Origin: a virus
Taxonomy: Duplodnaviria > Caudoviricetes
IMG/VR virus record: IMGVR_UViG_3300033407_000007
Coordinates: 6,546-70,545 of that record
Direction: 5' to 3' (one strand)
DNA: 64,000 nucleotides
Positions 3,988-45,571 of this stretch are shown here, in pieces. A program made the translations under genes and the position numbers. The number at the start of each line of letters is the position of its first letter. Position 1 is the stretch's first letter. The notes under the pieces are model-generated. The model worked only from the letters and a program-made list of their open reading frames with translations, was not told where the DNA came from and made no database searches.

Positions 3988-5178
3988 ATGACCCCAGTAT
4001 CAGACTACTTGATTGACGGCCAACCCCACGGGGACTTGGCCAATGAGTTTGCCGACAGCGGTTACAATAGCGGCGTCTGGCGACCCTACCTGGACCGCAA
4101 TGGCAACAAGTGCGTTACCGTCAATGTTGGTAAGCAGTACGATCCCACTAAGGGTCGCGAAGTTCCGACACGTGAGAAGATGACATTGCGTGAAGCAAGG
4201 TTCCGCGGTTATGACGCGCCTACATTGCACGTTAGCAATGCTACGATTCTCCGCAAAGATGAATGGATCATGTTTGACCGCGTGGTAGTAGAATCATCTA
4301 TGCAGAGACTGCGGGCATGGTCGGACCTGGCAGCGGCCAACACGATGACGCTCGACGGAATGAGTAATGAGATGCTGGAGCACGAGACCATTAATGATCC
4401 CGGGCAAGCCAGCGTGGATATGGATGGACTCAGCGACGGCACGGCAGATGGGGTGCTCTACCAGCTAGAGGGGATGCCCCTACCGTTCACCTATGAGTCC
4501 TTCTTCATCCCAGAGCGTAAGCTGGCCGTTAGCCGTAAGAACGGCAAGCCGCTTAGCACGCTGATGGCCAGCATCTGCGGCAGACGTGTCGCTGAGGTTA
4601 TTGAAAAGACTACCCTAGGTGTACTCGCAGGCATGCTCTATGGTACGAGCACTAACTACAGCCGAGCGCCTCAGGTTACCGGCTATACCAATCACCCTGC
4701 CCGCAATACGGCCACCCTCACTACGCCGACAGGTAGTAACAGCTCTACTACGGTTAGCGAAGTGTTGGCTATGCGCACCACCCTGTACGATGACGGGTTC
4801 TATGGGCCGTTCGTCTGTTACAACGGTACAGACTGGGACCGGTACCTGGACGACGATCACTTCAAATACGTGACCTCCGGTGGTGCTGCGCCGACCGGTA
4901 CGCTGCGGCAGCGTCTGATGCAGATTGAGGACATTACCGCCGTGCGTAGGGCGGACTACCTTACACCAACTTTAACCGGTGGTACATTTGACTTTGTCAT
5001 GGTCAGCCTCAGTCGGCCCGAGGTGTGCCGAGCAATCGTCGGTATGCCCATCAAGGTGCTCCAGTGGCCCAGCCGCGGCGGGGCGCAATTGAACTTCAAG
5101 GTAATCTGCATTAAGGCTCCTCAGATCCGTGCTGATTATAGTGGCAATAGCGGAATCAATCATGCCAGTGTCACCTGA
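3988..5178 (+). CDS. major capsid protein (HK97 fold)
   Basis: GAGGAG RBS before ATG 3988; about 396 aa; PLPFTYESF and GRRVAEVIE segments; synteny. Confidence 0.85.
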   Translation: MTPVSDYLIDGQPHGDLANEFADSGYNSGVWRPYLDRNGNKCVTVNVGKQYDPTKGREVPTREKMTLREARFRGYDAPTLHVSNATILRKDEWIMFDRVVVESSMQRLRAWSDLAAANTMTLDGMSNEMLEHETINDPGQASVDMDGLSDGTADGVLYQLEGMPLPFTYESFFIPERKLAVSRKNGKPLSTLMASICGRRVAEVIEKTTLGVLAGMLYGTSTNYSRAPQVTGYTNHPARNTATLTTPTGSNSSTTVSEVLAMRTTLYDDGFYGPFVCYNGTDWDRYLDDDHFKYVTSGGAAPTGTLRQRLMQIEDITAVRRADYLTPTLTGGTFDFVMVSLSRPEVCRAIVGMPIKVLQWPSRGGAQLNFKVICIKAPQIRADYSGNSGINHASVT

Positions 5179-5264: not shown

Positions 5265-5630
5265 ATGAAATTCAAGAATCTTATTGGGACCTATCAGGCC
5301 CCCAATCCGGACGGTCAACCGATCGTCTATCCTCAAGGTAGCGTGTTCGAGTCTAACATCGATCTGGCTAAAAGATTTAATGACCGCAGGGCCATTAAAT
5401 TCAAGCGCATGCCGGATGACTCTGAAGTACACGTAGCGGAAGTAGGTAAGTCTCGTCTGGATGAGGTAGACGATTCACCCTCAGAACCTGACGACGTGTT
5501 CAGCAGCATGACCTTGGCCGAGCTGCGCGAGGAGGCCCGCGAACACGACATTGACGTCAGTGGTGCTCGTACCAAGCGGGACGTGCTAAAGATCATTCGT
5601 GGAGCATCTACTGGCCTGGCTGGGGAGTAG
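5265..5630 (+). CDS. protein with C-terminal Rho-N/HeH-like domain
   Basis: SSMTLAELREEAREHDIDVSGARTKRDVLKII; common position after the MCP gene. Confidence 0.7.
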   Translation: MKFKNLIGTYQAPNPDGQPIVYPQGSVFESNIDLAKRFNDRRAIKFKRMPDDSEVHVAEVGKSRLDEVDDSPSEPDDVFSSMTLAELREEAREHDIDVSGARTKRDVLKIIRGASTGLAGE

Positions 5631-5634
5631 TCCT

Positions 5635-6051
5635 ATGGCTTGGCGAGTTAATCCAGAAGAGGTTGAGGCCATCATAAGAGATTATGACTCGGCTATCAAC
5701 CTGAAGCCCATGATCGTTGCGGCAAATGCCCTGACTGACGTGGTCAGTAGTAAGGACAGTGGGAGTCTACTCAATGCCAATCTTCTCCAGGAGATAGAGC
5801 GGCACTTGGCGGCGCACGTCTACGACGCCACAGACCATGAGGCTGCTGCCGAAACTACGGGTAAGTCAAATACCCAATACACTGGCCTGTATGGTAAGGG
5901 ATGTTTAGATGGCACTAGGCACGGCAAGCTAGCCATGATGCTGGACGTGACGGGGTATCTCTCTAGGCTCAACGAGGGGCGCAAGACGGCTACAGCTTCA
6001 TGGCTGGGCAAGCGAGTCAGTGAGCAGACCGACTACATAGACAGGTTCTGA
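5635..6051 (+). CDS. head-tail adaptor (DUF4054-like)
   Basis: IERHLAAH...LDGTRHGKLAMMLD pattern; synteny. Confidence 0.7.
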   Translation: MAWRVNPEEVEAIIRDYDSAINLKPMIVAANALTDVVSSKDSGSLLNANLLQEIERHLAAHVYDATDHEAAAETTGKSNTQYTGLYGKGCLDGTRHGKLAMMLDVTGYLSRLNEGRKTATASWLGKRVSEQTDYIDRF

Positions 6052-6434: not shown

Positions 6435-8005
6435 GATACATGCGTAGGATGCTGCTCGTCATAATCCTGATGTCCCCGTGGTGCGGGGGTGCGATTGCCC
6501 AGAGTACTACCACGTACAAGGGGATTACGGTGCAAGACCCGGCACCCACGGGGGCCGCTGGTCTGAGGTATGATAATAACTTCAAGGCTCTTGCTGACCG
6601 AGTCCCAGGGGCATCATACATCAAGACTACAGATCCCACCGTAGATGACGACGTGGACTTGGGATACTACCCAGGGTACATCTGGGTGAACGTGAACGGA
6701 CCTCTGTGGTGGGGATGTACGGACAACACGGATGGTGCCGCGAACTGGGAGCAGTTGAATGCGGCTGGAGATTCTGCGTATATCTCTGACGCTGTATACG
6801 GATCAGGCTGGGATGGTGTAACCACAATTGCACCTAGTAAGAATACTCTTTATGACCTATTGAGCACGTACGGAACAATGGCTACGCAGGACGCCGATGC
6901 CGTGGCAATAACGGGCGGCAGCGCCAGCGGCCTGACATCGCTGGGTATTGATATCACGCCGACTGAGGCTCTGCATCTGGAGTCTGCGGTGGCGACCGGC
7001 GAATTCTACGGCATGAAGATCCGCGACACGGCGCAGGTCCAGAAGGCGGAAGCCTATATTGGCGTCCAGGACGTAGGTGATTTCCCCCTGGCCGGCATTT
7101 GGCTGGGCGAGACGATGGTGCCCGACTTCGAGAATTACTCATTACTGTACTCCGCCAGCGGCATTTTATTTGGCAGTCCCGCGGGGCAATCGATGTATTT
7201 TCGCATCGGCAACGTCGACAAAATGATCGTCAGAAGCGGTGGCAACTTGGAGATGCCGAACGATTCGGCCTACCTGCTCTTGGGCGCTGGCCTGGACTAC
7301 GGCATCGCATGGGACGGCACCAACGCGGTACATTCGATCCCGTCCGGAAAATTCGATTTCAATGGGCCACTACAAATTTCGCCTGGCGCGTCCGTTGATC
7401 CGAGCAATAACGGAGACATGGTATTCGAGCTGACGTCCGATACTGTGCTGGCCGTAAAAGCAAAGGGCTCGGATGCTACTGTTCGGGCTGTGACGATCCC
7501 GTTGACTGATAGTACCGCGCTAATGGCAACCGATGTTGGTATTGCCGACAACAACCTCTTGGAGGTCGACGATGCCGACAACCTGGCTGTCGATGATTAT
7601 GCCAAGGTCACCGCCAGCGGGATCGTCGGCAGAACCTACGCGCAGGTCAAATCTGATCTGCAAATAGCCCAAGCTGCAGGAACAATCGATGCAGATGGCA
7701 CTGATGATATTGATTGGAGTTCAAATCATTTTTGGATCGTGACCGTCGATATCAATGAGGTCTTAACGTTTACCGATCCGCCCGCTGCTGGTGAATCTCT
7801 CCGTATGGTGGCAATCCAGTCCGGTGGTAGTAACACCCTAGACGTGGCGAGTGCGACTGAGACGATCTATTGGCCCGATACAGATAGCGACGGGGATGGG
7901 GATGTCCCTACGTTTCCGGCGACGGCTGGGCAAAGGATGGCCTACACATTTCTGTTCGACGGAACGAATTACTATGCGACTGGAATTCCGTATGGAACTC
8001 CGTGA
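6431..8005 (+). CDS. fibre/appendage-like protein with apparent Sec signal peptide
   Basis: MRYMRRMLLVIILMSPWCGGAIA|Q; GTMATQDADAVAITGG fibre-type motif; beta-rich C-terminus. Confidence 0.6.
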   Translation: MRYMRRMLLVIILMSPWCGGAIAQSTTTYKGITVQDPAPTGAAGLRYDNNFKALADRVPGASYIKTTDPTVDDDVDLGYYPGYIWVNVNGPLWWGCTDNTDGAANWEQLNAAGDSAYISDAVYGSGWDGVTTIAPSKNTLYDLLSTYGTMATQDADAVAITGGSASGLTSLGIDITPTEALHLESAVATGEFYGMKIRDTAQVQKAEAYIGVQDVGDFPLAGIWLGETMVPDFENYSLLYSASGILFGSPAGQSMYFRIGNVDKMIVRSGGNLEMPNDSAYLLLGAGLDYGIAWDGTNAVHSIPSGKFDFNGPLQISPGASVDPSNNGDMVFELTSDTVLAVKAKGSDATVRAVTIPLTDSTALMATDVGIADNNLLEVDDADNLAVDDYAKVTASGIVGRTYAQVKSDLQIAQAAGTIDADGTDDIDWSSNHFWIVTVDINEVLTFTDPPAAGESLRMVAIQSGGSNTLDVASATETIYWPDTDSDGDGDVPTFPATAGQRMAYTFLFDGTNYYATGIPYGTP

Positions 8006-37683: not shown

Positions 37684-37864
37684 CCGTCAGCTTTACCCCC
37701 TAAAGGGGTTAGGTGTATCGCTCCCGCCTAGCCCCCGGGGGTAAGGCGTAGGCATAATATCCCGTTTAAGGCCTCTAGCAGGCCCATTTAGGGCCTCCGG
37801 CACCTAGGCCCTAGTAACCCTACCCGCGGCCCCGGCAAGCCCTTAGGCGACGACGTAGGCGCAT

Positions 37865-37906
37865 AAAAATAGCCCCAGCTCCCCTACGCGGGGAGCTGGG
37901 GCTATC
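37865..37906 (-). terminator. intrinsic terminator between convergent units
   Basis: AAAAATAGCCCCAGCTCCC...GGGAGCTGGGGCTAT; U-tail on the minus strand. Confidence 0.85.
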
Positions 37907-37927
37907 TAAGAGGTTCCTCGGGGGACG

Positions 37928-38104
37928 CTAAGCTGGGTGAGTGGTGCCGCGCAGTCGGCTGCCGTTGTGTCCGACTAGCTTGAGCACCCTGTTACTGATT
38001 CGGTCAGGGGCAGTAACCTTTGGCGGGTCTTGCCTCTTACGCTCCAGTTCCATCCGCAGGGCCTTGGGGATAGACTCCCCAGTGTAATTGACGATCTCAT
38101 TCAT
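37928..38104 (-). CDS. small hypothetical protein (58 aa, not in ORF track)
   Basis: AGGAG RBS; MNEIVNYTGESIPKALRMELERKRQ...HPA*. Confidence 0.5.
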   Translation of the reverse strand: MNEIVNYTGESIPKALRMELERKRQDPPKVTAPDRISNRVLKLVGHNGSRLRGTTHPA

Positions 38105-38203
38105 CGCCGTTCTCCTATAGGTATAAGTAACTAGCTACTGCTATTCCTAGGCAAAAGCCTGAAGCAAACACGAACACCAAAGTAAGAATCCATTCTTCCC
38201 TCA

Positions 38204-38416
38204 TCATCTGGCGGCCCTCCTTTTCTTCAGTTGGGTGTAAACCCGGTCTACCGTCATGGAGATTTTTTCCTCCCCAGGGTATGGACGGTCAGGGTGGAAC
38301 ACACTATTGTTGGGGTAGTCGTAGCTGGGCATAGGACTGAGGCCGCACCGTTCACACGTATTGCGTTTGCCATTATCCTCCTGCTGCCGGTTACACACTG
38401 GGCATCGTACTTGCAT
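38204..38416 (-). CDS. small zinc-ribbon protein
   Basis: AGGAGG RBS; CPVC...CERCG. Confidence 0.65.
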   Translation of the reverse strand: MQVRCPVCNRQQEDNGKRNTCERCGLSPMPSYDYPNNSVFHPDRPYPGEEKISMTVDRVYTQLKKRRAAR

Positions 38417-38432
38417 CACAATCCTCCTTATG

Positions 38433-40241
38433 TTAGTCGATGCTGTAGACTGTAGCGTCCTGAAATTCTGCGAGTGGTTTACCCAACGTCTTGCGCTGGC
38501 AGCTGCCATCTCTGCGGTATACGTCCACGACCTCTCCCTCTCGGTCGTAGGGGCCTTGCACGCACCAACGACCTTCCCACTTGCGCCAGGTGAACTTGTC
38601 ACTGGCAGATCGTTGGGGTTGGGCAGGTGCCTCCGGTGCAGCATACTTACCGCTGGAGATAATTCGGTCCACGTTCATCGAGTCGTTACCCGTGAAGAAC
38701 GGGCACTCGCTTACATCCAGCGTCTCCTTGGCCCGGGTCAGGGCCACGTAGAGCAACTTCAATTCAGCGTCGCCGCACTTGCTCTTGACTGCAAAGTCGC
38801 TGGCCAGCTTGACGTGCCTCCACTCCCGTCCCTTACTCTTGTGAGCCGTGCTGATGACCAGATCAGCGTCCTCTTCCTGGGGCATACCTCGCAGGGCATC
38901 CAGGATGGTAGTGACGCCGAAGCTGTCGATCAGCTTGACCATCAACTGAAGGTCCTTACCCTCGTCCATGGAAACGTACTGCTGTAATTCACCCCAACTG
39001 CTGAAGCACGCCAGCTCCGGGTGACTGGTATTACCTGTCTCTTGCAGGTCCTTGGCCCCCTGGACGAACGAGATGAGCTGGCTGCTGCCTCCCACCAGGT
39101 AGGGATGCTTACCATGGTCGATGGCCTCCAGTAGGTAGCCCACGGCCATCGCGTTGGTACGGCACAGGATGGCATCCGGTTGCTCACTGGTAGCTCCACT
39201 GACGACCGTAGAGTTAATGGCCTCGTAGCCTCGCAGCCGTAACTGGGTCTGCTCCTGGAGGAGACTCAGCACCGCATTGGCCACCTCAGCGATGGCCGGA
39301 CCGAACCGGAATGACTGACTAAGGTATAACCTAGGGGCTCCGGGGAATGCCGCTAGGGCGTTCACGGCCCCCCGCCACTCGTAGATCTGCTGGGCACTAT
39401 CGCCGACCAAGATCACCTGCGGACGGTACTCACGGTCTGGGTTAACCTGCTGAGCCAGTATGTCCAGCATCACTGGTGCGGTGTCCTGCGCCTCATCTAG
39501 GAGTATGTAATCTGCAGAGATCACAGGGTCGTTCAACTGCCACAGCTTAACATAATGGTCATGGGTGAAAGGCATCGTGCCGTCCGGGTCGGCGATGTCA
39601 GCCCACGCCTTCTGGGCGAACGGTACGAGGTACTCCTTGACCGCGTCGTTGTTGTCATAGGTCCGCTTACCATCTGCGGGCTGATCCAGGCCGTCCATGT
39701 AGGCAAAGTGTTTACCCCCTATCTCGCGGTCAGCAGACTGGCAGAAGTTGCCAATGGCCATCATCACGCGGGTGGCCAGGAACTGGGCTGCCAACTCCTT
39801 CTCCTTTACCTCCTTGCCCTCACTGTCCTTGATCGACGGCAACGAGAAGTTCTTGATGCCGATCATCTCGGCAATAGCTTTGGCCCTAACCCGGTTGCCG
39901 CCCAGGCGATGGCTGTACTTGCTGCCGATCGCTCTGAACGCGAGGCTGTGGGTGGTATTGCACTGGCATGCGGTACCACGGAACTTGCCGGAGCTGTCCA
40001 CCACGAGGCTCTTGTTGAATGCTGTGTACTGCCCTCTTCCCTGGAGCACGTCCACCAGCATCCGGTCCGTTGTTGTCTTACCCGTGCCTGCTCCGGCCTC
40101 GATCATGATGACCGGCGTGCCCCTAGATGCCTCCTCCATGATGGCCTGTTGCTCCGGTGTGGGCGTCCTACCATTAGAGGATGGCTTACTAACGGCCGAC
40201 GCCTTGCGGATAGCCTTATCTAAATTCTGACTCTTTTTCAT
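38433..40241 (-). CDS. UvrD/Rep-like SF1 helicase
   Basis: AGAGTGKT, LLDEAQD, VGDSAQQIYEWRGA, STAHKSKGREW, LLYVALTRAK. Confidence 0.92.
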   Translation of the reverse strand: MKKSQNLDKAIRKASAVSKPSSNGRTPTPEQQAIMEEASRGTPVIMIEAGAGTGKTTTDRMLVDVLQGRGQYTAFNKSLVVDSSGKFRGTACQCNTTHSLAFRAIGSKYSHRLGGNRVRAKAIAEMIGIKNFSLPSIKDSEGKEVKEKELAAQFLATRVMMAIGNFCQSADREIGGKHFAYMDGLDQPADGKRTYDNNDAVKEYLVPFAQKAWADIADPDGTMPFTHDHYVKLWQLNDPVISADYILLDEAQDTAPVMLDILAQQVNPDREYRPQVILVGDSAQQIYEWRGAVNALAAFPGAPRLYLSQSFRFGPAIAEVANAVLSLLQEQTQLRLRGYEAINSTVVSGATSEQPDAILCRTNAMAVGYLLEAIDHGKHPYLVGGSSQLISFVQGAKDLQETGNTSHPELACFSSWGELQQYVSMDEGKDLQLMVKLIDSFGVTTILDALRGMPQEEDADLVISTAHKSKGREWRHVKLASDFAVKSKCGDAELKLLYVALTRAKETLDVSECPFFTGNDSMNVDRIISSGKYAAPEAPAQPQRSASDKFTWRKWEGRWCVQGPYDREGEVVDVYRRDGSCQRKTLGKPLAEFQDATVYSID

Positions 40242-40267
40242 CGTATCGCTCCTTGGTAGGGGTAAAA

Positions 40268-40693
40268 TTATTCCCAGTAGGTTCTGCCCATGGCCCCACG
40301 CACCTTCTTGAGGCCAAGTGAACGCATAACCTCGTCCTTGTCCTTGCGTGCTTGCCTCCTGCGGGCTAGGGTCTTCTTGTGCTTCATGTCGATCTCCATC
40401 TCACACTTCTCGCAGACGTTCTCGCCGTCCTTAGTGTAGATTTCGTTTCCGCAATAGTTGCATAGTTGCTTGGTTTCATCATGTACCCGCTGCCACACGG
40501 TGCGCTTTTGACCGCGAGGGTATCCCTGCCGCTGTGGGGCATCGGCGTATGCCTGGACCGATGATGGGTCCAGGACGTAGTAGAATCCACCCGGCATACT
40601 GCGTCGCCGGGATTTAAGGGTGCCCTGCTGACAGAGCACCCTCACTTGCCGTACCGAGCAGCCGATGACGGCTGCCGCTTCTTTTGGGGTCAT
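40268..40693 (-). CDS. excisionase-like HTH protein with zinc ribbon
   Basis: MTPKEAAAVIGCSVRQVRVLCQQG; CNYC...CEKC. Confidence 0.75.
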   Translation of the reverse strand: MTPKEAAAVIGCSVRQVRVLCQQGTLKSRRRSMPGGFYYVLDPSSVQAYADAPQRQGYPRGQKRTVWQRVHDETKQLCNYCGNEIYTKDGENVCEKCEMEIDMKHKKTLARRRQARKDKDEVMRSLGLKKVRGAMGRTYWE

Positions 40694-41310
40694 TTATTAA
40701 TCCTCGAACATGCCTCTCTCGAACATGCCTCTCTCGAACATGCCTCTTCGGCGATCGCGATTAAGTCTAAGTCGCATGGACACGCCCTCGCTGCCCTCTC
40801 CGCCGCCCCCGCCGCACACGCCGCCGCCCACGCCGCCGCCCACGCCGCCGCCGCCCGCGCCGCCGCCTCCTCCGCCGCCAAAGCCGCCGCCGCCGCCCAC
40901 GCCGCCGCTTTCTTACTGCGGTCCCTTCCGCTCATCCAGTTGTCCGCCCATTCACGCCAGCCGGGATGGACGCAGCCAGCCGCTCTCGCGCAGAGGATCG
41001 CGAATCGCACGCGCTGTTCGGTCGTGATTTTCGGTAGCGGGATCTGCTTGATCGTGGTTAGGCTGGTCGTGCCAACCTTGAGGCCGTGATCAGTTTTGCC
41101 CACCTCGCCTTCCGCTTCCCAGAGAATTGGGCTACGAAAATCGGCATGAATCGAATTCAGTAATACGGCCAACAATGGATGGGTGTAGGCATGAATCCAA
41201 CCGGGTCCGCAAAGCTCGCCCTCGCCGCTAGCGGTGTGCGTGACATTTTCGCCCCATTGTGTGTTGTTGTATGTTTGGCCATATTCGTCGGTTAGTTTGT
41301 ACAGTCTCAT
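40690..41310 (-). CDS. hypothetical protein with Ala/Trp low-complexity tail
   Basis: AGGAG RBS before ATG 41310; AAAWAAAAALAAEEAAARAAAAWAAAWAAAC; (EACSR)x3. Confidence 0.7.
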   Translation of the reverse strand: MRLYKLTDEYGQTYNNTQWGENVTHTASGEGELCGPGWIHAYTHPLLAVLLNSIHADFRSPILWEAEGEVGKTDHGLKVGTTSLTTIKQIPLPKITTEQRVRFAILCARAAGCVHPGWREWADNWMSGRDRSKKAAAWAAAAALAAEEAAARAAAAWAAAWAAACAAGAAERAARACPCDLDLIAIAEEACSREACSREACSRINK

Positions 41311-41331
41311 GTATCGCTCCTGATGAAATCC

Positions 41332-41364
41332 CCCCACCCCGCCGCCACGGGCGACGGAGTGGGG
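41332..41364 (-). repeat. GC-rich 14-bp hairpin, copy 1
   Basis: Near-identical to 42140-42172; G-U pairs favour the minus-strand RNA. Confidence 0.8.
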
Positions 41365-41380
41365 TAACGAGGTGAGTGAA

Positions 41381-41578
41381 TTACAACTTTCCCTCTTGTC
41401 GCAGTCGCGTCTTCAGATCATCCGGAATGTACACCGGGTGGCTATAGCGTCGCGTGGCGACGGAGATCGCCTCTTTGACTGTGCGTCCTGTCCCCCACAT
41501 GTAGCCGTCTTCGGCCGAAACGACGCCGAAACGTCGGTTTCCCTGGCCGGTCCAGTATTCTACGATTGCTCCGAACAT
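41381..41578 (-). CDS. small hypothetical protein (MFGAIVEY...)
   Basis: GAGGTG RBS inside the 62-bp repeat. Confidence 0.65.
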   Translation of the reverse strand: MFGAIVEYWTGQGNRRFGVVSAEDGYMWGTGRTVKEAISVATRRYSHPVYIPDDLKTRLRQEGKL

Positions 41579-41624
41579 GTTTCACCTCATCGTCTAATGC
41601 GCCTCCCCGAAGTGGTTCGGCAAG
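41563..41624 (-). repeat. 62-bp exact direct repeat, copy 1 (leader, RBS and first codons)
   Basis: Identical to 42037-42098. Confidence 0.95.
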
Positions 41625-41674
41625 CCCCGGTTTGCGGCATCGAGCCGCGTAGCGATTCGCCGGGGGTGGTGAGA

Positions 41675-42052
41675 TCAGCCTTGGGTCTCGGCCACGTACG
41701 CGCCATCATCATCGGCCAGAGCGATCCAGCCGAGATTTTCCATCGCCGAAACGAGAGCCTCTTTATCCACGGCCAACTCCTCATCGCGGCCTAGGGCCTC
41801 CAGTCCGTCAAGGAGCACGATCGGAAAGGACTGCCAATCGTTGCAGTCCACCTCGTACAGTTCCTGCACGATTCCCCGCGTGGGGGATGATTGATTGTGG
41901 CCGAGTCGGTAAGCCCTCGCCTGCGGATCATAGGCGGCTTCCGAGATCGCTTCTGCGGCTGCCTTGGCCTCTGCCTCGGTATCGTGCACCGATATCAGGC
42001 GGTACTCCGTGCTGGGACCGTAGAAATCGGTTTTCGCGATTGCTCCGAACAT
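41675..42052 (-). CDS. acidic hypothetical protein (MFGAIAKT...)
   Basis: Same leader and first five codons as 41381-41578. Confidence 0.7.
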   Translation of the reverse strand: MFGAIAKTDFYGPSTEYRLISVHDTEAEAKAAAEAISEAAYDPQARAYRLGHNQSSPTRGIVQELYEVDCNDWQSFPIVLLDGLEALGRDEELAVDKEALVSAMENLGWIALADDDGAYVAETQG

Positions 42053-42098
42053 GTTTCACCTCATCGTCTAATGCGCCTCCCCGAAGTGGTTCGGCAAG
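42037..42098 (-). repeat. 62-bp exact direct repeat, copy 2
   Basis: Identical to 41563-41624. Confidence 0.95.
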
Positions 42099-42139
42099 TC
42101 CCCGTCCGGATCGCGAGTCCCGGTTACGCTGCGGGGAAG

Positions 42140-42172
42140 CCCCACCCCGCCGCCACGAGCGACGGAGTGGGG
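42140..42172 (-). repeat. GC-rich 14-bp hairpin, copy 2
   Basis: Differs from copy 1 at one loop base. Confidence 0.8.
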
Positions 42173-42215
42173 GAACGAGATTCGTTCAGATCGGCTACCC
42201 GCCGTGGGTTGCGGC

Positions 42216-42605
42216 TCAGTTGCCGCGGGGGTCTTCTGTCTCGCCGGCGATGATCGCTTTGGCTAGCCGGCGGTAGGGGCGGATCGACCGGCGAGTCAGC
42301 CGGCGGATGTCGGCTCGGGTCTCGGGGCCGGCGAAGCGATTGATCGGCCTGTCCTGCCGGCTGCAATTGCAGGCTCGGCAAGCGGTGACCAGATTGGCCG
42401 GCTCGTTGCTGCCGCCGTCGCTGTCGGGTCGCACGTGGTCGAGCGTAATGTCGCTCGGGTGGGCGCCGTGCAGGTCCCGGCAGCAATACACGCAGCGGAA
42501 TGAGTCTCGGAGGTAGATGGCCAGCCTGAGATCTTTGCGGCAGACGACGCCTTTGTAGCCGGCTTTGCTGTTTCGGCCGTTCGTGGCTTTTTTCGTCTTG
42601 GTCAT
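42216..42605 (-). CDS. HNH endonuclease
   Basis: CVYC...TLDHVRP...GGSNEPANLVTACRACN; GAGGTG RBS. Confidence 0.9.
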   Translation of the reverse strand: MTKTKKATNGRNSKAGYKGVVCRKDLRLAIYLRDSFRCVYCCRDLHGAHPSDITLDHVRPDSDGGSNEPANLVTACRACNCSRQDRPINRFAGPETRADIRRLTRRSIRPYRRLAKAIIAGETEDPRGN

Positions 42606-42630
42606 CGTCTCACCTCGTTGTTGGGGGTTA

Positions 42631-42680
42631 GCCTCATCAGTGCCGGTTCGTCCGGCAGACGCCCCGGAGGGCGTTTCGGC
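42631..42680 (-). ncRNA. hammerhead ribozyme, type II topology
   Basis: Minus strand GCC-GAAA-CGCCC(TCCG)GGGCG-TC^TGCCGG(ACGAA)CCGGCA-CTGATGA-GGC; intact core; predicted GUC cut between 42658 and 42657. Confidence 0.85.
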
Positions 42681-42684
42681 GGTT

Positions 42685-42743
42685 CAGGTTTCGTGTGGTA
42701 ATGGTAACTCATCAGGCACGGCTACCAATGCCGTGCGACCTAG
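42685..42743 (-). ncRNA. hammerhead ribozyme, type III topology with loop I-loop II pseudoknot
   Basis: Minus strand TAGG-TC^GCACGGC(ATTGGTA)GCCGTGC-CTGATGA-GT(TACCATTACCAC)AC-GAAA-CCTG; TGGTA can pair with TACCA; predicted cut between 42737 and 42736. Confidence 0.88.
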
Positions 42744-42825
42744 TGTCTGCCTGCGGTGGGGATGAGGGGTAACTCATGCCATCCGTTGTTCGGCAGGTAA
42801 GATTTAGTTTTCAAAGAACACCCTT

Positions 42826-42853
42826 ACTATACGCCTTATCGGCCTCAAGTAAA
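42826..42853 (-). promoter_or_regulatory. sigma70-like early promoter TTTACT-16-TATAGT
   Basis: Shares TTTACT and the spacer motif GCCGATAAGG with the promoter at 57871-57899; -35 overlaps an AAATAGCC/GGCTATTT inverted repeat. Confidence 0.6.
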
Positions 42854-42963
42854 TAGCCGGGGTAGGCTATTTTGAGATATTTATAAAAGTATTTATAAGG
42901 GTATTACTAAATAGTTGCTGGGTAAGGACTTACGACTTAAAGATATTTTGCCGTAACCAACAG

Positions 42964-43020
42964 AAAAGGCCCCCGATTAGGGGGCCTGTGTGGTAGAAAA
43001 TGGGGCCATCCGTGGCCCCT
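42964..43020 (-). terminator. two tandem intrinsic terminators
   Basis: AAAAGGCCCCC-GATTA-GGGGGCCT and AAAATGGGGCCA...TGGCCCC downstream of the 43037-44578 gene. Confidence 0.7.
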
Positions 43021-43036
43021 GGCGGTAGCGGCTAGG

Positions 43037-44578
43037 CTACGCGGTAGGTTGTCGAGGGGATGGCTGCTGAGATAGTAGCTTCGCAAACGGCTCGACCACC
43101 TCTGACCCGGCACCCTGGAACCCGTTAGCTATCTTGCACACGGCACTCTTGCCGCGGACGCCGACCACGCGAACCTGGTAAGGTTCGCCGTCATCGCTCA
43201 TGATCCAGCGGGTCTTGCCTAGCAGGCCAGTGATGTTATTGGAATCCTTGGGCGGCTTAGGGGTCTTTTGTTTACGCTCCGCTGGAGGCAGCTCACCATT
43301 AGTCTGCTTCTGTTGCTTGATCGTCTTGATCTTCTCCTCTTGCTCCTCCTTGGGCGGTGCCTTGGTTACCTGCTCCTCGTTCAGGTCGGCTAGGCTGCCA
43401 ATGTCGATGCCCCCGACTACGGGATGTTCGTCCAAGTAAGCGAACCCATCTTCGTCCTCCTGGTAGTGGAGCGTGAGGTTGGCTTCGGTCAGCTTCTTGC
43501 CCTGGGTGGTGAGATTCCACGCCTTGATTAACAGAGCCATCTTGCCGTCCAAGCTGTTGTCGCCGTCCTCGATCATCGCGGCCAAGCACTTGCGGATGGG
43601 GGCCATGCTGCCGTCATCTCCGGCCAGCATCACGAACCAGTCGCACGCCACGCCCCACTGACTGAAGTCGATGATGGACTCGTCGTGCCGCTCGCTGTTC
43701 AGGTACGCGGTCTGATCGGTCTTGCTGGTGGCGAACAGGTACAGCAGGGCAGCGCAGTAGCCGCGGCCCAGAAACCGACACAGCTTGCCCTCGCTGTCCT
43801 CCGTACTGACGTGGTCAATAGCCCCTAGGATACGCTGATGGCGCTCCAGGAAGTTCACCGACTCGCTGTGCGTCCTGCGGGGTGAGAACCCATCGAGGTT
43901 CTCGGCAGTACGCACCCACAGCAACCGTATGGCGTAGTCAGTAGCCCTGGCGGCCTGCTTGCGTTCTCCTGGAGGAAGATCAGCGAAATAGGGGCTGCGG
44001 TAGATCACGTCGGCCAGCGTGCGCGGCTTGCACGTGTCCATCGTGTTGACCACCGCGTCGTCCTCGTCTACTCCAACGGCCACTAGCTTGTCGATGGTAG
44101 GCGGTCCGTGCAAGGCCGGATACAGTCCCGGGTCCTTGGCGTAGTCCTTGTCGGCGAGTACCAGGGCGATCAACTGGTGCTGGCCGTTCAGTACGTGTCC
44201 CATTTTGCCGATGATGACCGGCTCGCCGTTGTACCTCCAACGTCCTCGTAGGATCTCCTGCTTCAGAGCCAGCACGTTGCCCAGCGACAGTGGGCGGTTC
44301 ATCACGTTGTATTTGCACCGTACCTTAACGCTACTGTCATCTCCGTTCTTGCAACTAAAGAGGTAGTCGCCGCCGTATCTGACGTTACTGCCTCCCTTGC
44401 CCTCCTCCATCCATCCGAGGATCTCCTTGGCAGTCTCCGCGTCCAGTGGTGGCTTGTCGCCGCCTTCCTTGCACAGTGACACCTTCTCTGTTGGGTAGAG
44501 CACCTTAACTTCAGGCTGGTCTGATGTTACTACTGATGCATTGGTCCTGGTCTTGCTAGCCGCTTTTGCCTTAGCCAT
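43037..44578 (-). CDS. ParB/Srx-like (xGQH motif) domain protein, paralog 1
   Basis: NRPLS...RWRYNGEPVII...LNGQHQLIAL; KPRTLADV; C-terminal SH3/KOW-like segment. Confidence 0.7.
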   Translation of the reverse strand: MAKAKAASKTRTNASVVTSDQPEVKVLYPTEKVSLCKEGGDKPPLDAETAKEILGWMEEGKGGSNVRYGGDYLFSCKNGDDSSVKVRCKYNVMNRPLSLGNVLALKQEILRGRWRYNGEPVIIGKMGHVLNGQHQLIALVLADKDYAKDPGLYPALHGPPTIDKLVAVGVDEDDAVVNTMDTCKPRTLADVIYRSPYFADLPPGERKQAARATDYAIRLLWVRTAENLDGFSPRRTHSESVNFLERHQRILGAIDHVSTEDSEGKLCRFLGRGYCAALLYLFATSKTDQTAYLNSERHDESIIDFSQWGVACDWFVMLAGDDGSMAPIRKCLAAMIEDGDNSLDGKMALLIKAWNLTTQGKKLTEANLTLHYQEDEDGFAYLDEHPVVGGIDIGSLADLNEEQVTKAPPKEEQEEKIKTIKQQKQTNGELPPAERKQKTPKPPKDSNNITGLLGKTRWIMSDDGEPYQVRVVGVRGKSAVCKIANGFQGAGSEVVEPFAKLLSQQPSPRQPTA

Positions 44579-44636
44579 TGTCACACTCCTAGTAATAGGT
44601 GTTATGTCTACCGTGCGACGTGCACGGTAGGCCCTA

Positions 44637-44665
44637 TTTATAATAGTTACGCGAGTAAAAGTAAA
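44637..44665 (-). promoter_or_regulatory. sigma70-like promoter TTTACT-17-TATAAA
   Basis: In an AT-rich divergent intergenic region; a 9-bp hairpin (44608-44630) follows in the leader. Confidence 0.5.
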
Positions 44666-44876
44666 TACATATCTTAAACCCTTATATACTACGTACTTAC
44701 GTACTTACGTAACGATATTGCCCCACTATATTATAATGTATTTCTGCGTTGCGTAAGTTTGCTTAGGGGGTAGGGCAGGGGGATCGGGGGGCCGCGGCGG
44801 TATAGCGTTCTGGGGATAGGGTATTATTAAAGGGTACGTGTCACGCATCTGATACACAATACATGGGAGGACCGAG

Positions 44877-45092
44877 ATGGCTAAGAACCACATGACCGAG
44901 TACCCTCTGCGATACCCTTGGGATGACTGGTTTGCTAGGGCATCCAAACGACCCATCAAACTTCGTAGGGGTGAACATTTCCCATGCATGATACATAGTA
45001 TGGGAGTTCAGATCCGTACAGCAGCCGCAGAGCGAGGCTTGCGAGTGAAGGTATTAACCGCAGACAATATCCTTACTGTGGAGGTACTGTGA
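44877..45092 (+). CDS. small hypothetical, possibly DNA-binding
   Basis: GGGAGG RBS; YPWDDWF...SMGVQIRTAAAERG. Confidence 0.6.
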   Translation: MAKNHMTEYPLRYPWDDWFARASKRPIKLRRGEHFPCMIHSMGVQIRTAAAERGLRVKVLTADNILTVEVL

Positions 45093-45571
45093 CAATGCCT
45101 GAGATGCCATGTAATAAGACATTCATTGGCGTCGATCCTGGTAAACATGGAGGATTAGTGTGCATGGACTACGATGGCCGAGTGCTCGACCTGATTAGAA
45201 TGCCATCCACCGAATCTGACGTTTGGAAATGGTTCATCGAGATATATGATCCTAGCGTTCGCACAGTCGCCGTGATCGAGAAGGTGCATAGTATGCCCAA
45301 GCAGGGTGTAGCTTCATCATTCACGTTTGGGATGGGGTATGGCGGGTTGCGGATGGCGTTAATTGCCGCTGGTATTCCGTTTGATCAGGTCACGCCGCAG
45401 AAGTGGATGAAGGCGATAGGCATCCCGCCGCGCAAGAAGACCGACACTAACAACCAATGGAAGAACCGTCTTAAGGCGCACGCTCAGCAACTCTTCCCCC
45501 AGGAAAATATCACGTTGGCCACAGCCGACGCTCTTTTGATCGCCGAGTATTGTAGGAGGGCCTACCGATGA
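45089..45571 (+). CDS. RuvC-like Holliday junction resolvase
   Basis: IGVDPGKHGG, VIEKV, SSFTFGMGYG, ADALLIA. Confidence 0.88.
   Translation: MTMPEMPCNKTFIGVDPGKHGGLVCMDYDGRVLDLIRMPSTESDVWKWFIEIYDPSVRTVAVIEKVHSMPKQGVASSFTFGMGYGGLRMALIAAGIPFDQVTPQKWMKAIGIPPRKKTDTNNQWKNRLKAHAQQLFPQENITLATADALLIAEYCRRAYR

Follow-up and report, generated by a model that had tools for sequence, protein, structure and literature searches.

Two hammerhead ribozyme motifs, one of type III (HH1) and one of type II (HH2), lie side by side in a phage 5′ leader, downstream of a predicted promoter that is conserved in related phages. We consider it likely, at a probability of about 0.65, that these are genuine hammerhead motifs whose cleavage trims the leader and standardizes the 5′ end of the mRNA, and that their tandem arrangement reflects cassette shuffling. 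The window, by which we mean the whole 64-kb stretch of DNA that was analyzed, makes up most of a 70.5-kb IMG/VR virus record, and its DNA is present in soil and sediment metagenomes; no RNA run was listed among the sequencing runs that contain the locus. The majority of its genes are encoded on the plus strand. The hammerheads are part of a minus-strand gene block (Table 1) that opens with an 87-aa ORF and a 515-aa ORF and continues with the hammerhead region, an HNH endonuclease gene and several small ORFs, followed by a helix-turn-helix/zinc-ribbon gene and a UvrD-type helicase gene. The 515-aa protein could be assigned to no Pfam family, matches PHROG 5931 (a group of unknown function) and produced only weak, partial mycobacteriophage matches in tblastn searches. 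A blastn comparison of the hammerhead region with cultured phages gave zero matches.

Table 1. Features of the hammerhead locus and of related phage contigs. Positions are those of the window unless a contig (L number) is named.
Feature	Position	Strand	Details
Minus-strand gene block	about 44990-37930	-	about 7 kb
515-aa ORF	44584-43037	-	ends just upstream of the hammerhead leader region
Two terminator-like hairpins with T-runs	43019-43002 and 42987-42967	-	3′ of the 515-aa ORF
Predicted promoter	42826-42872	-	dyad; -35 TTTACT (42853-42848); -10 TATAGT (42831-42826); 16-nt spacer
Untranslated leader, putative start to HH1	42743-42819	-	short
HH1, type III hammerhead	42742-42685	-	predicted cut 42737/42736
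HH1 stem III	42742-42738 with 42689-42685	-	5 bp, one terminal G-U; C17 at 42737
HH1 stem I	42736-42730 with 42722-42716	-	7 bp; loop I AUUGGUA at 42729-42723
HH1 CUGAUGA core	42715-42709	-	
HH1 stem II	G42708-C42693, U42707-A42694	-	2 bp; 12-nt loop
HH1 GAA	42692-42690	-	
Fragment between the predicted cuts	42736-42658	-	79 nt; made up solely of HH1 3′ and HH2 5′ sequence
HH2, type II hammerhead	42680-42631	-	predicted cut 42658/42657
HH2 stem II	GCC 42680-42678 with GGC 42633-42631	-	3 bp
HH2 GAA	42677-42675	-	
HH2 stem III		-	6 bp; UCCG loop; C17 at 42658
HH2 stem I	42657-42652 with 42646-42641	-	6 bp
HH2 core	42640-42634	-	
Mobile HNH cassette	42629-42190	-	440 nt; edges coincide with the limits of homology to L003
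HNH ribosome-binding site	42616-42609	-	GAGGTGAG
HNH ORF	42605-42216	-	Pfam PF01844 and PF14279
Conserved promoter in related phages	L022 about 4595-4650; L026 about 5357-5400; L035 about 4631-4690		
Leader-start motif CTTTGAnAACTTGAACGGC	window about 42815-42800; L020 4946; L022 4663; L030/L031 4299; L035 4698		after a small 5′ hairpin
UUGAAGA core variants	L035 4942-4991; L127 5841-5896; L144 middle of 1780-2800	- (L144)	before ribosome-binding sites
TTGACA-abutted type II hammerheads	L127 about 5805-5840 and about 6520-6560; L144	- (L144)	

Two hammerhead motifs of different type

A hammerhead descriptor of our own, covering all three permutations, was run on both strands of the 64-kb window and returned exactly two matches, HH1 and HH2, which are both on the minus strand and separated by a gap of 4 nt. 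In 300 dinucleotide-preserving shuffles, weak matches appeared at a rate of 0.057 per window and none was as strong as HH1 or HH2. The original prediction had placed two complete hammerhead cores, of types III and II, on this strand, and its coordinates, types and predicted cleavage sites are all correct. As criteria we used those given in the passages of PMC3088659 that define the motif and in Rfam clan CL00010, namely C3 U4 G5 A6 N7 G8 A9, G12 A13 A14, an A15.1-U16.1 pair and H17 (not G); the same passages of PMC3088659 add that stems I to III have no core-adjacent mispair and that the helices have no multiple mispairs. Both motifs contain CUGAUGA, GAA, A15.1-U16.1 and C at position 17, with zero mispairs adjoining the core and three helices each that are without multiple mispairs. 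The core-adjacent pairs are G-C (1.1/2.1), G-C (10.1/11.1) and A-U (15.1/16.1) in HH1, and U-A, G-C and A-U in HH2. When the 161-nt region was folded at minimum energy, both motifs formed their stems I and III unprompted.

Searches with Rfam models gave a mixed picture. At gathering thresholds, the whole window contained a single tRNA and no hammerhead; at permissive thresholds, no ribozyme class besides that of HH2 was found in positions 37800-45200 or in nine related loci. HH2 scored 34.6 bits against the type II model RF02276, 2.4 bits short of a gathering score (37) that is a database cut-off and not a biochemical property, with E-values of 4e-5 when 900 nt were searched and 3e-4 when 7.4 kb were. 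Its closest relative, in phage contig L026, exceeds the threshold at 42.1 bits. HH1 had no match at E ≤10, and the HH1-like copies of L016, L107 and L145 were unmatched at E ≤1.

Four HH1-like elements from unrelated phages (L016, L131, L107 and L145), located by pattern scans, were the basis of a covariance model (R1) that excluded the window. This model recognized HH1 at 52.1 bits (E about 1e-15), compared with 70-77 bits for compact HH1-like copies. An alignment of 11 copies showed pairing in 97.3% of cells and changes on both sides at 12 of the 18 pairs; 0 of 500 shuffles reached the observed values, and slid controls paired in no more than 52% of cells. This alignment was model-based, the fit involving the nested stems but not the pseudoknot; plain MAFFT misplaced the loop II insertions. 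The pseudoknot, which lies outside model R1, covaries at two pairs: the first is G-C, A-U or, in L116, U-A (visible in the sequence and masked by an alignment gap), and the second is U-A or, in L035, C-G. Covariation in homologs, which the original prediction had named as a test, is thus seen for the stems and pseudoknot of HH1, and stems I and III of HH2 show compensatory changes relative to L026, L064 and L036 (four sequences only). By structure, scan, model and covariation, and as far as sequence can tell, HH1 and HH2 are genuine hammerhead motifs.

HH1 has both the 2-bp stem II and the UGGUA/UACCA loop-loop pairing that had been described for it. The UGGUA of loop I can form a 5-bp pseudoknot with loop II, which offers two copies of UACCA as alternative partners: a duplicated UUACCA, 8 nt beyond the family minimum, gives two pseudoknot registers. 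In the sections of Perreault et al. 2011 (PMC3088659) that deal with motif structure, stems II of 1-2 bp are described, stem I-stem II pseudoknots are found in about 40% of representatives, and pseudoknot disruption or adjacent insertions lowered cleavage rates by orders of magnitude. HH1 resembles the pseudoknot-stabilized hammerheads of those sections (Figures 2 and 4 of PMC3088659) in its 2-bp stem II and 5-bp pseudoknot; it differs in belonging to a subclass, characterized by loop I AUUGGUA and a 7-bp stem I, that goes undetected by Rfam, and in the duplicated UUACCA of the window copy. This covarying, pseudoknotted type III subclass is invisible to current Rfam models. When species-representative genomes were scanned for the HH1 loop and core, the one match, within coding sequence of Peribacillus, was a chance occurrence. 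The leader (42768-42777) and the HH1 core/loop II (42703-42712) share a 10-nt direct repeat (ATGAGTTACC, minus strand), which may be a duplication relic.

HH2 is like other RF02276 members in its full core, its type II permutation and its hairpin stems I and III, but it shows no detectable loop I-3′ tail pseudoknot of the kind that most members have. The 5-nt loop I of HH2 finds no complement of at least 3 nt in the 3′ tail or the 5′ flank, and relatives have loops I of 10-12 nt with a 3-4-bp match to the 3′ tail. According to the parts of PMC3088659 on type II hammerheads, most of them use this pseudoknot, and its disruption slowed cleavage more than 100-fold in vitro. HH2 is possibly slow because the usual tertiary pseudoknot is not detectable in it, although loop I may make a non-Watson-Crick contact. 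The insertion in loop II may slow HH1, and, since pseudoknot disruption and adjacent insertions reduced rates in the sections of Perreault et al. cited above, either motif may be slow.

Promoter, leader and the proposed role of cleavage

The candidate upstream promoter of the original prediction, TTTACT/TATAGT, is the sole promoter-like site in the 1-kb region, and it is conserved in three related phages. It is predicted to be sigma-70-like, and its position defines a putative transcription start. The site sits in a stretch of 30-34% G+C, and an 8-bp dyad, AAATAGCC-N6-GGCTATTT, overlaps the -35 hexamer. The same dyad and -35, followed by a -10 that fits TATAnT, are present in phage contigs L022, L026 and L035, whose 515-aa homologs are only about 40% identical to that of the window. 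In L022 the dyad takes the compensatory form AAATAGGC/GCCTATTT, and it could function as an operator or as a hairpin.

HH1-like copies are located 3′ of the 515-aa homolog in L022, L030/L031 and L035. The conserved promoter lies upstream of the HH1-like copy in L022 and L035 and upstream of an HH2-like copy in L026, where a small ORF intervenes between promoter and ribozyme. In L030/L031 the dyad pattern was unmatched; their leader opens with the conserved motif CTTTGAnAACTTGAACGGC, and an HH1-like copy follows. The same motif is found at leader starts in the window and in other contigs (Table 1). From this motif to the HH1-like ribozyme, L022, L030 and L035 have a leader of 265-450 nt that appears to contain no ORF, and this long leader could be a non-coding RNA with a 3′ end made by the ribozyme. 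Counted from the promoter, the leader of L022 and L035 measures about 265-400 nt and shows no convincing ORF. In the short leader of the window, of about 83 nt, an ORF of 21 codons starting at the ATG at 42772 was rejected because its spacing to any ribosome-binding site is poor.

RNA processing at the head of the operon, the role originally put forward, is the best reading, because both motifs follow a conserved promoter at the head of the minus-strand gene block. Transcription would start at the sigma-70-like promoter, past the terminators of the 515-aa gene, and self-cleavage during transcription, at 42737/42736 and/or 42658/42657, would remove the promoter-proximal leader. The mRNA would then start with a 5′-OH. 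Following an HH2 cut, it would begin at 42657 with the 6-bp hairpin of stem I, which lies about 40 nt upstream of the ribosome-binding site; following an HH1 cut alone, it would begin at 42736. Probably, this would give the mRNA a standardized 5′ end and translation-initiation region irrespective of the upstream sequence. Thermodynamic prediction indicates that, before cleavage, a leader segment (about 42803-42796) can base-pair with the ribosome-binding site, whose predicted mean unpaired probability is 0.27-0.30 in uncut and 0.44-0.47 in cut RNA. The calculation suggests that the ribosome-binding site may be partly sequestered by the leader segment until cleavage, an effect that would be weak.

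The location of hammerheads relative to genes was examined in 91 distinct strong phage hammerheads, from loci chosen by ribozyme patterns and not by start-codon distance. With ORFs of at least 40 aa considered, 71% are located no more than 40 nt upstream of a ribosome-binding site and start codon, compared with 25% of random positions from the same loci. The median distance from hammerhead to start is 26 nt, and HH2 lies 25 nt from the start codon of HNH, as had been stated. RiboJ-type insulators, which were engineered from a satellite-RNA hammerhead, place the ribozyme between promoter and ribosome-binding site, where it removes a variable 5′ leader and leaves a 5′ hairpin; their purpose is expression that is independent of upstream context. 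The window is alike in placement, and its function we infer from position only. That hammerheads occupy a stereotyped position, 10-40 nt ahead of ribosome-binding sites, is in keeping with natural insulation, and of the roles considered we rate leader trimming or insulation as most likely. Ribozymes of both types, III and II, follow the same promoter, by a few hundred nt in relatives and directly in the window, which suggests that cleavage at that place, as opposed to a particular RNA, is selected. The functions of bacterial and phage hammerheads were described as still elusive in a 2019 review (PMC6765202). For this question the locus constitutes a well-documented case, of modest weight by itself.

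Origin of the tandem arrangement

Those parts of Perreault et al. 2011 (PMC3088659) that concern phages report all three hammerhead types from phages and prophages, with clusters that adjoin variable genes, and name processing of phage transcripts as a likely role. Closely spaced phage hammerheads are therefore a layout already described, and the window adds another case. As in the clusters of that account, hammerheads of mixed type lie close together on one phage strand. The difference is that the window's pair is 4 nt apart, has no gene between its members and runs from type III to type II, whereas the ribozymes flank genes in the passages describing those clusters.

Related phages carry an HH1-like or an HH2-like copy singly, and both are found together only in the window. 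Exact-pattern searches of IMG/VR and JGI metagenome contigs uncovered no HH1/HH2 tandem elsewhere. Three metagenome matches to an HH1-like core plus a second core were rejected as chance occurrences, all of them inside coding sequence. The original prediction had proposed searching related phages for the pair and for its linkage to HNH, and neither was found; because the tandem is absent from the other contigs searched, there is no sign of selection for the pair.

Contigs from Logan, which give partial cover of the hammerhead locus, include one from another soil/sediment sample in which HH2 (42631-42681) has unrelated sequence on both sides; it contains 5 extra nt in or beside loop I, followed by a ribosome-binding site and a different gene. 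In a further Logan sample, a contig break falls exactly at the 5′ edge of HH1 (42742/42743). Among L107, L145 and L180, a cassette of about 380 nt, starting 24 nt past the HH1-like element, is present or absent. Judged from these junctions, each hammerhead behaves as a discrete unit at mosaic boundaries. Most simply, HH1 is the copy that relatives have at this position, HH2 is a second module of the kind that relatives carry singly, and the tandem is a by-product of cassette or module exchange that may also give redundancy. The coincidence of mosaic breakpoints and of the HNH cassette edge with the exact edges of the ribozymes hints that such conserved 50-nt modules also serve as joints for cassette exchange.

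Shuffling of this kind might also have left behind a mere recombination scar, in which one or both ribozymes are decaying and make little or no present contribution, one copy being redundant and drifting. We regard this as rather unlikely. The uniqueness of the tandem to the window's phage and the mosaic breakpoints at hammerhead edges are in its favor, as are the 8-nt loop II insertion of HH1, with a model score below those of compact copies, and the loss by HH2 of both usual pseudoknot partners, the place of the 3′ tail being occupied by the HNH cassette. Decay would nevertheless have spared every core nucleotide and core-adjacent pair in HH1 and HH2, all of the stems, which are perfect, and the HH1 pseudoknot, which is intact in two registers; moreover, L022 and L030 have loop II insertions too and keep the fold.

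The inter-ribozyme fragment, the HNH cassette and further phage hammerheads

Cleavage at both predicted sites would yield a 79-nt piece, a length that had been calculated correctly. In the predicted fold of the 79-mer, the 5′ end is contained in the HH1 stem I hairpin and the 3′ end in the HH2 stem III hairpin; the spacer between these hairpins is single-stranded apart from one small hairpin, and no pairing joins the two ends. Most simply, the piece would be a by-product.

Short inter-ribozyme fragments do recur among phages, because pairs of type II hammerheads are conserved in at least eight contigs. In these divergent contigs the two type II motifs are 9-13 nt apart and would release 64-70 nt, and the same gene follows. 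L131 has a type II + type III pair, 67 nt apart. It is conceivable, if improbable, that back-to-back pairs at phage operon heads are a selected device. Double cleavage would in that case free a defined RNA of 65-80 nt, with a 5′-OH and a 2′,3′-cyclic phosphate, that acts in its own right, perhaps as a circle or by engaging RNA-repair/ligation enzymes of the host as their substrate or decoy. The window would then represent an independent type III + type II version.

Hammerhead cleavage leaves a 2′,3′-cyclic phosphate on the upstream product and a 5′-OH on the downstream product. On this basis the original prediction envisaged that double cleavage frees the 79-nt RNA and that a host RtcB-type ligase makes it into a small functional circle. 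The end chemistry is suitable in principle, type II back-to-back pairs that release pieces of 64-70 nt are conserved in at least eight other phage contigs, and, as in viroids, retrozymes and engineered circular RNAs, two cuts bracket an RNA with ligatable ends. In those systems, however, a rod or stem holds the ends together and there is cargo in the insert, whereas the ends of the 79-mer are apart and it is cargo-free, ribozyme halves being its whole content. With its 5′ and 3′ ends closed in different predicted hairpins that no pairing unites, and with a parent pair that is not conserved elsewhere, a functional circle is very improbable. Circular or spliced products of clustered phage hammerheads were sought by Perreault et al. 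2011, and none was detected in the experiments described in that part of their paper (PMC3088659).

The HNH gene is a mobile cassette, since homology between the window and L003 stops sharply at both edges, none of 13 HNH-homolog loci contains a hammerhead, and these loci have no gene in common with the window besides HNH. The HNH proteins of the window and L003 are 95% identical. The cassette begins 2 nt past HH2, and its 3′ tail extends 26 nt past the HNH stop codon. The linkage between HNH and the ribozymes that had been suspected is therefore not borne out; the association appears incidental, because the 13 homologs elsewhere are without a ribozyme. Most simply, the sequence comparisons would place the HNH insertion later than the ribozymes and unrelated to them, so that the tandem ribozymes were probably not built for HNH.

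It is correspondingly hard to credit that the ribozymes are a dedicated HNH control device, acting for example to limit expression of a toxic nuclease. HH2 does end only 25 nt before the HNH start codon, but the homology that delimits the cassette starts 2 nt past HH2 and ends 26 nt past the stop codon, all 13 homolog loci do without a hammerhead, L003 and L015 have their own consensus-like promoter where the window has ribozymes, and unrelated genes follow the HH1-like and HH2-like copies of relatives. The idea of an HNH enzyme that targets hammerhead DNA was rejected, since hammerheads adjoin no HNH locus besides this one. Finally, that the motifs are chance look-alikes and not ribozymes, as their scores below Rfam gathering levels might suggest, is effectively refuted by the shuffles, the independent model and the covariation, including that of the pseudoknot.

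Several further repeats occur in the gene block. Located 3′ of the HNH gene are two copies of a 69-nt leader (41563-41631 and 42037-42105), consisting of a hairpin, a ribosome-binding site and first codons, and two copies of a 40-nt G+C-rich hairpin (41332-41371 and 42140-42179); different genes follow the copies in each case, and Rfam searches of the duplicated leader/hairpin region identified no ribozyme. A G+C-rich repeat with a 9/12-nt period (40771-40920) lies within a 215-aa minus-strand ORF and would encode a glycine-rich repetitive stretch.

Other phage contigs provided additional observations on hammerheads. In L045, L048, L060/L096, L066, L068, L072, L073, L082, L094 and L098, type II hammerheads form arrays of 6-12 members in the space of a few kb, with one before nearly every small gene, and several of these arrays include the conserved back-to-back pair, 9-13 nt apart. 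A core variant, UUGAAGA (C3 changed to U, A at position 7), is present in three unrelated contigs in otherwise intact hammerhead folds (Table 1); these variants may be slow or altered in function. In L127 and L144, a perfect TTGACA abuts the 5′ end of type II hammerheads and a -10-like hexamer is found in the stem III loop. A promoter may thus be embedded in the type II ribozyme, in which case its transcripts would carry an incomplete ribozyme. The related contigs L018 (6312-6351) and L019 (3798-3835) contain an 8-bp hairpin, CTGGTACC...GGTACCAG, with CUGAUGA in its loop, which is not a canonical hammerhead.
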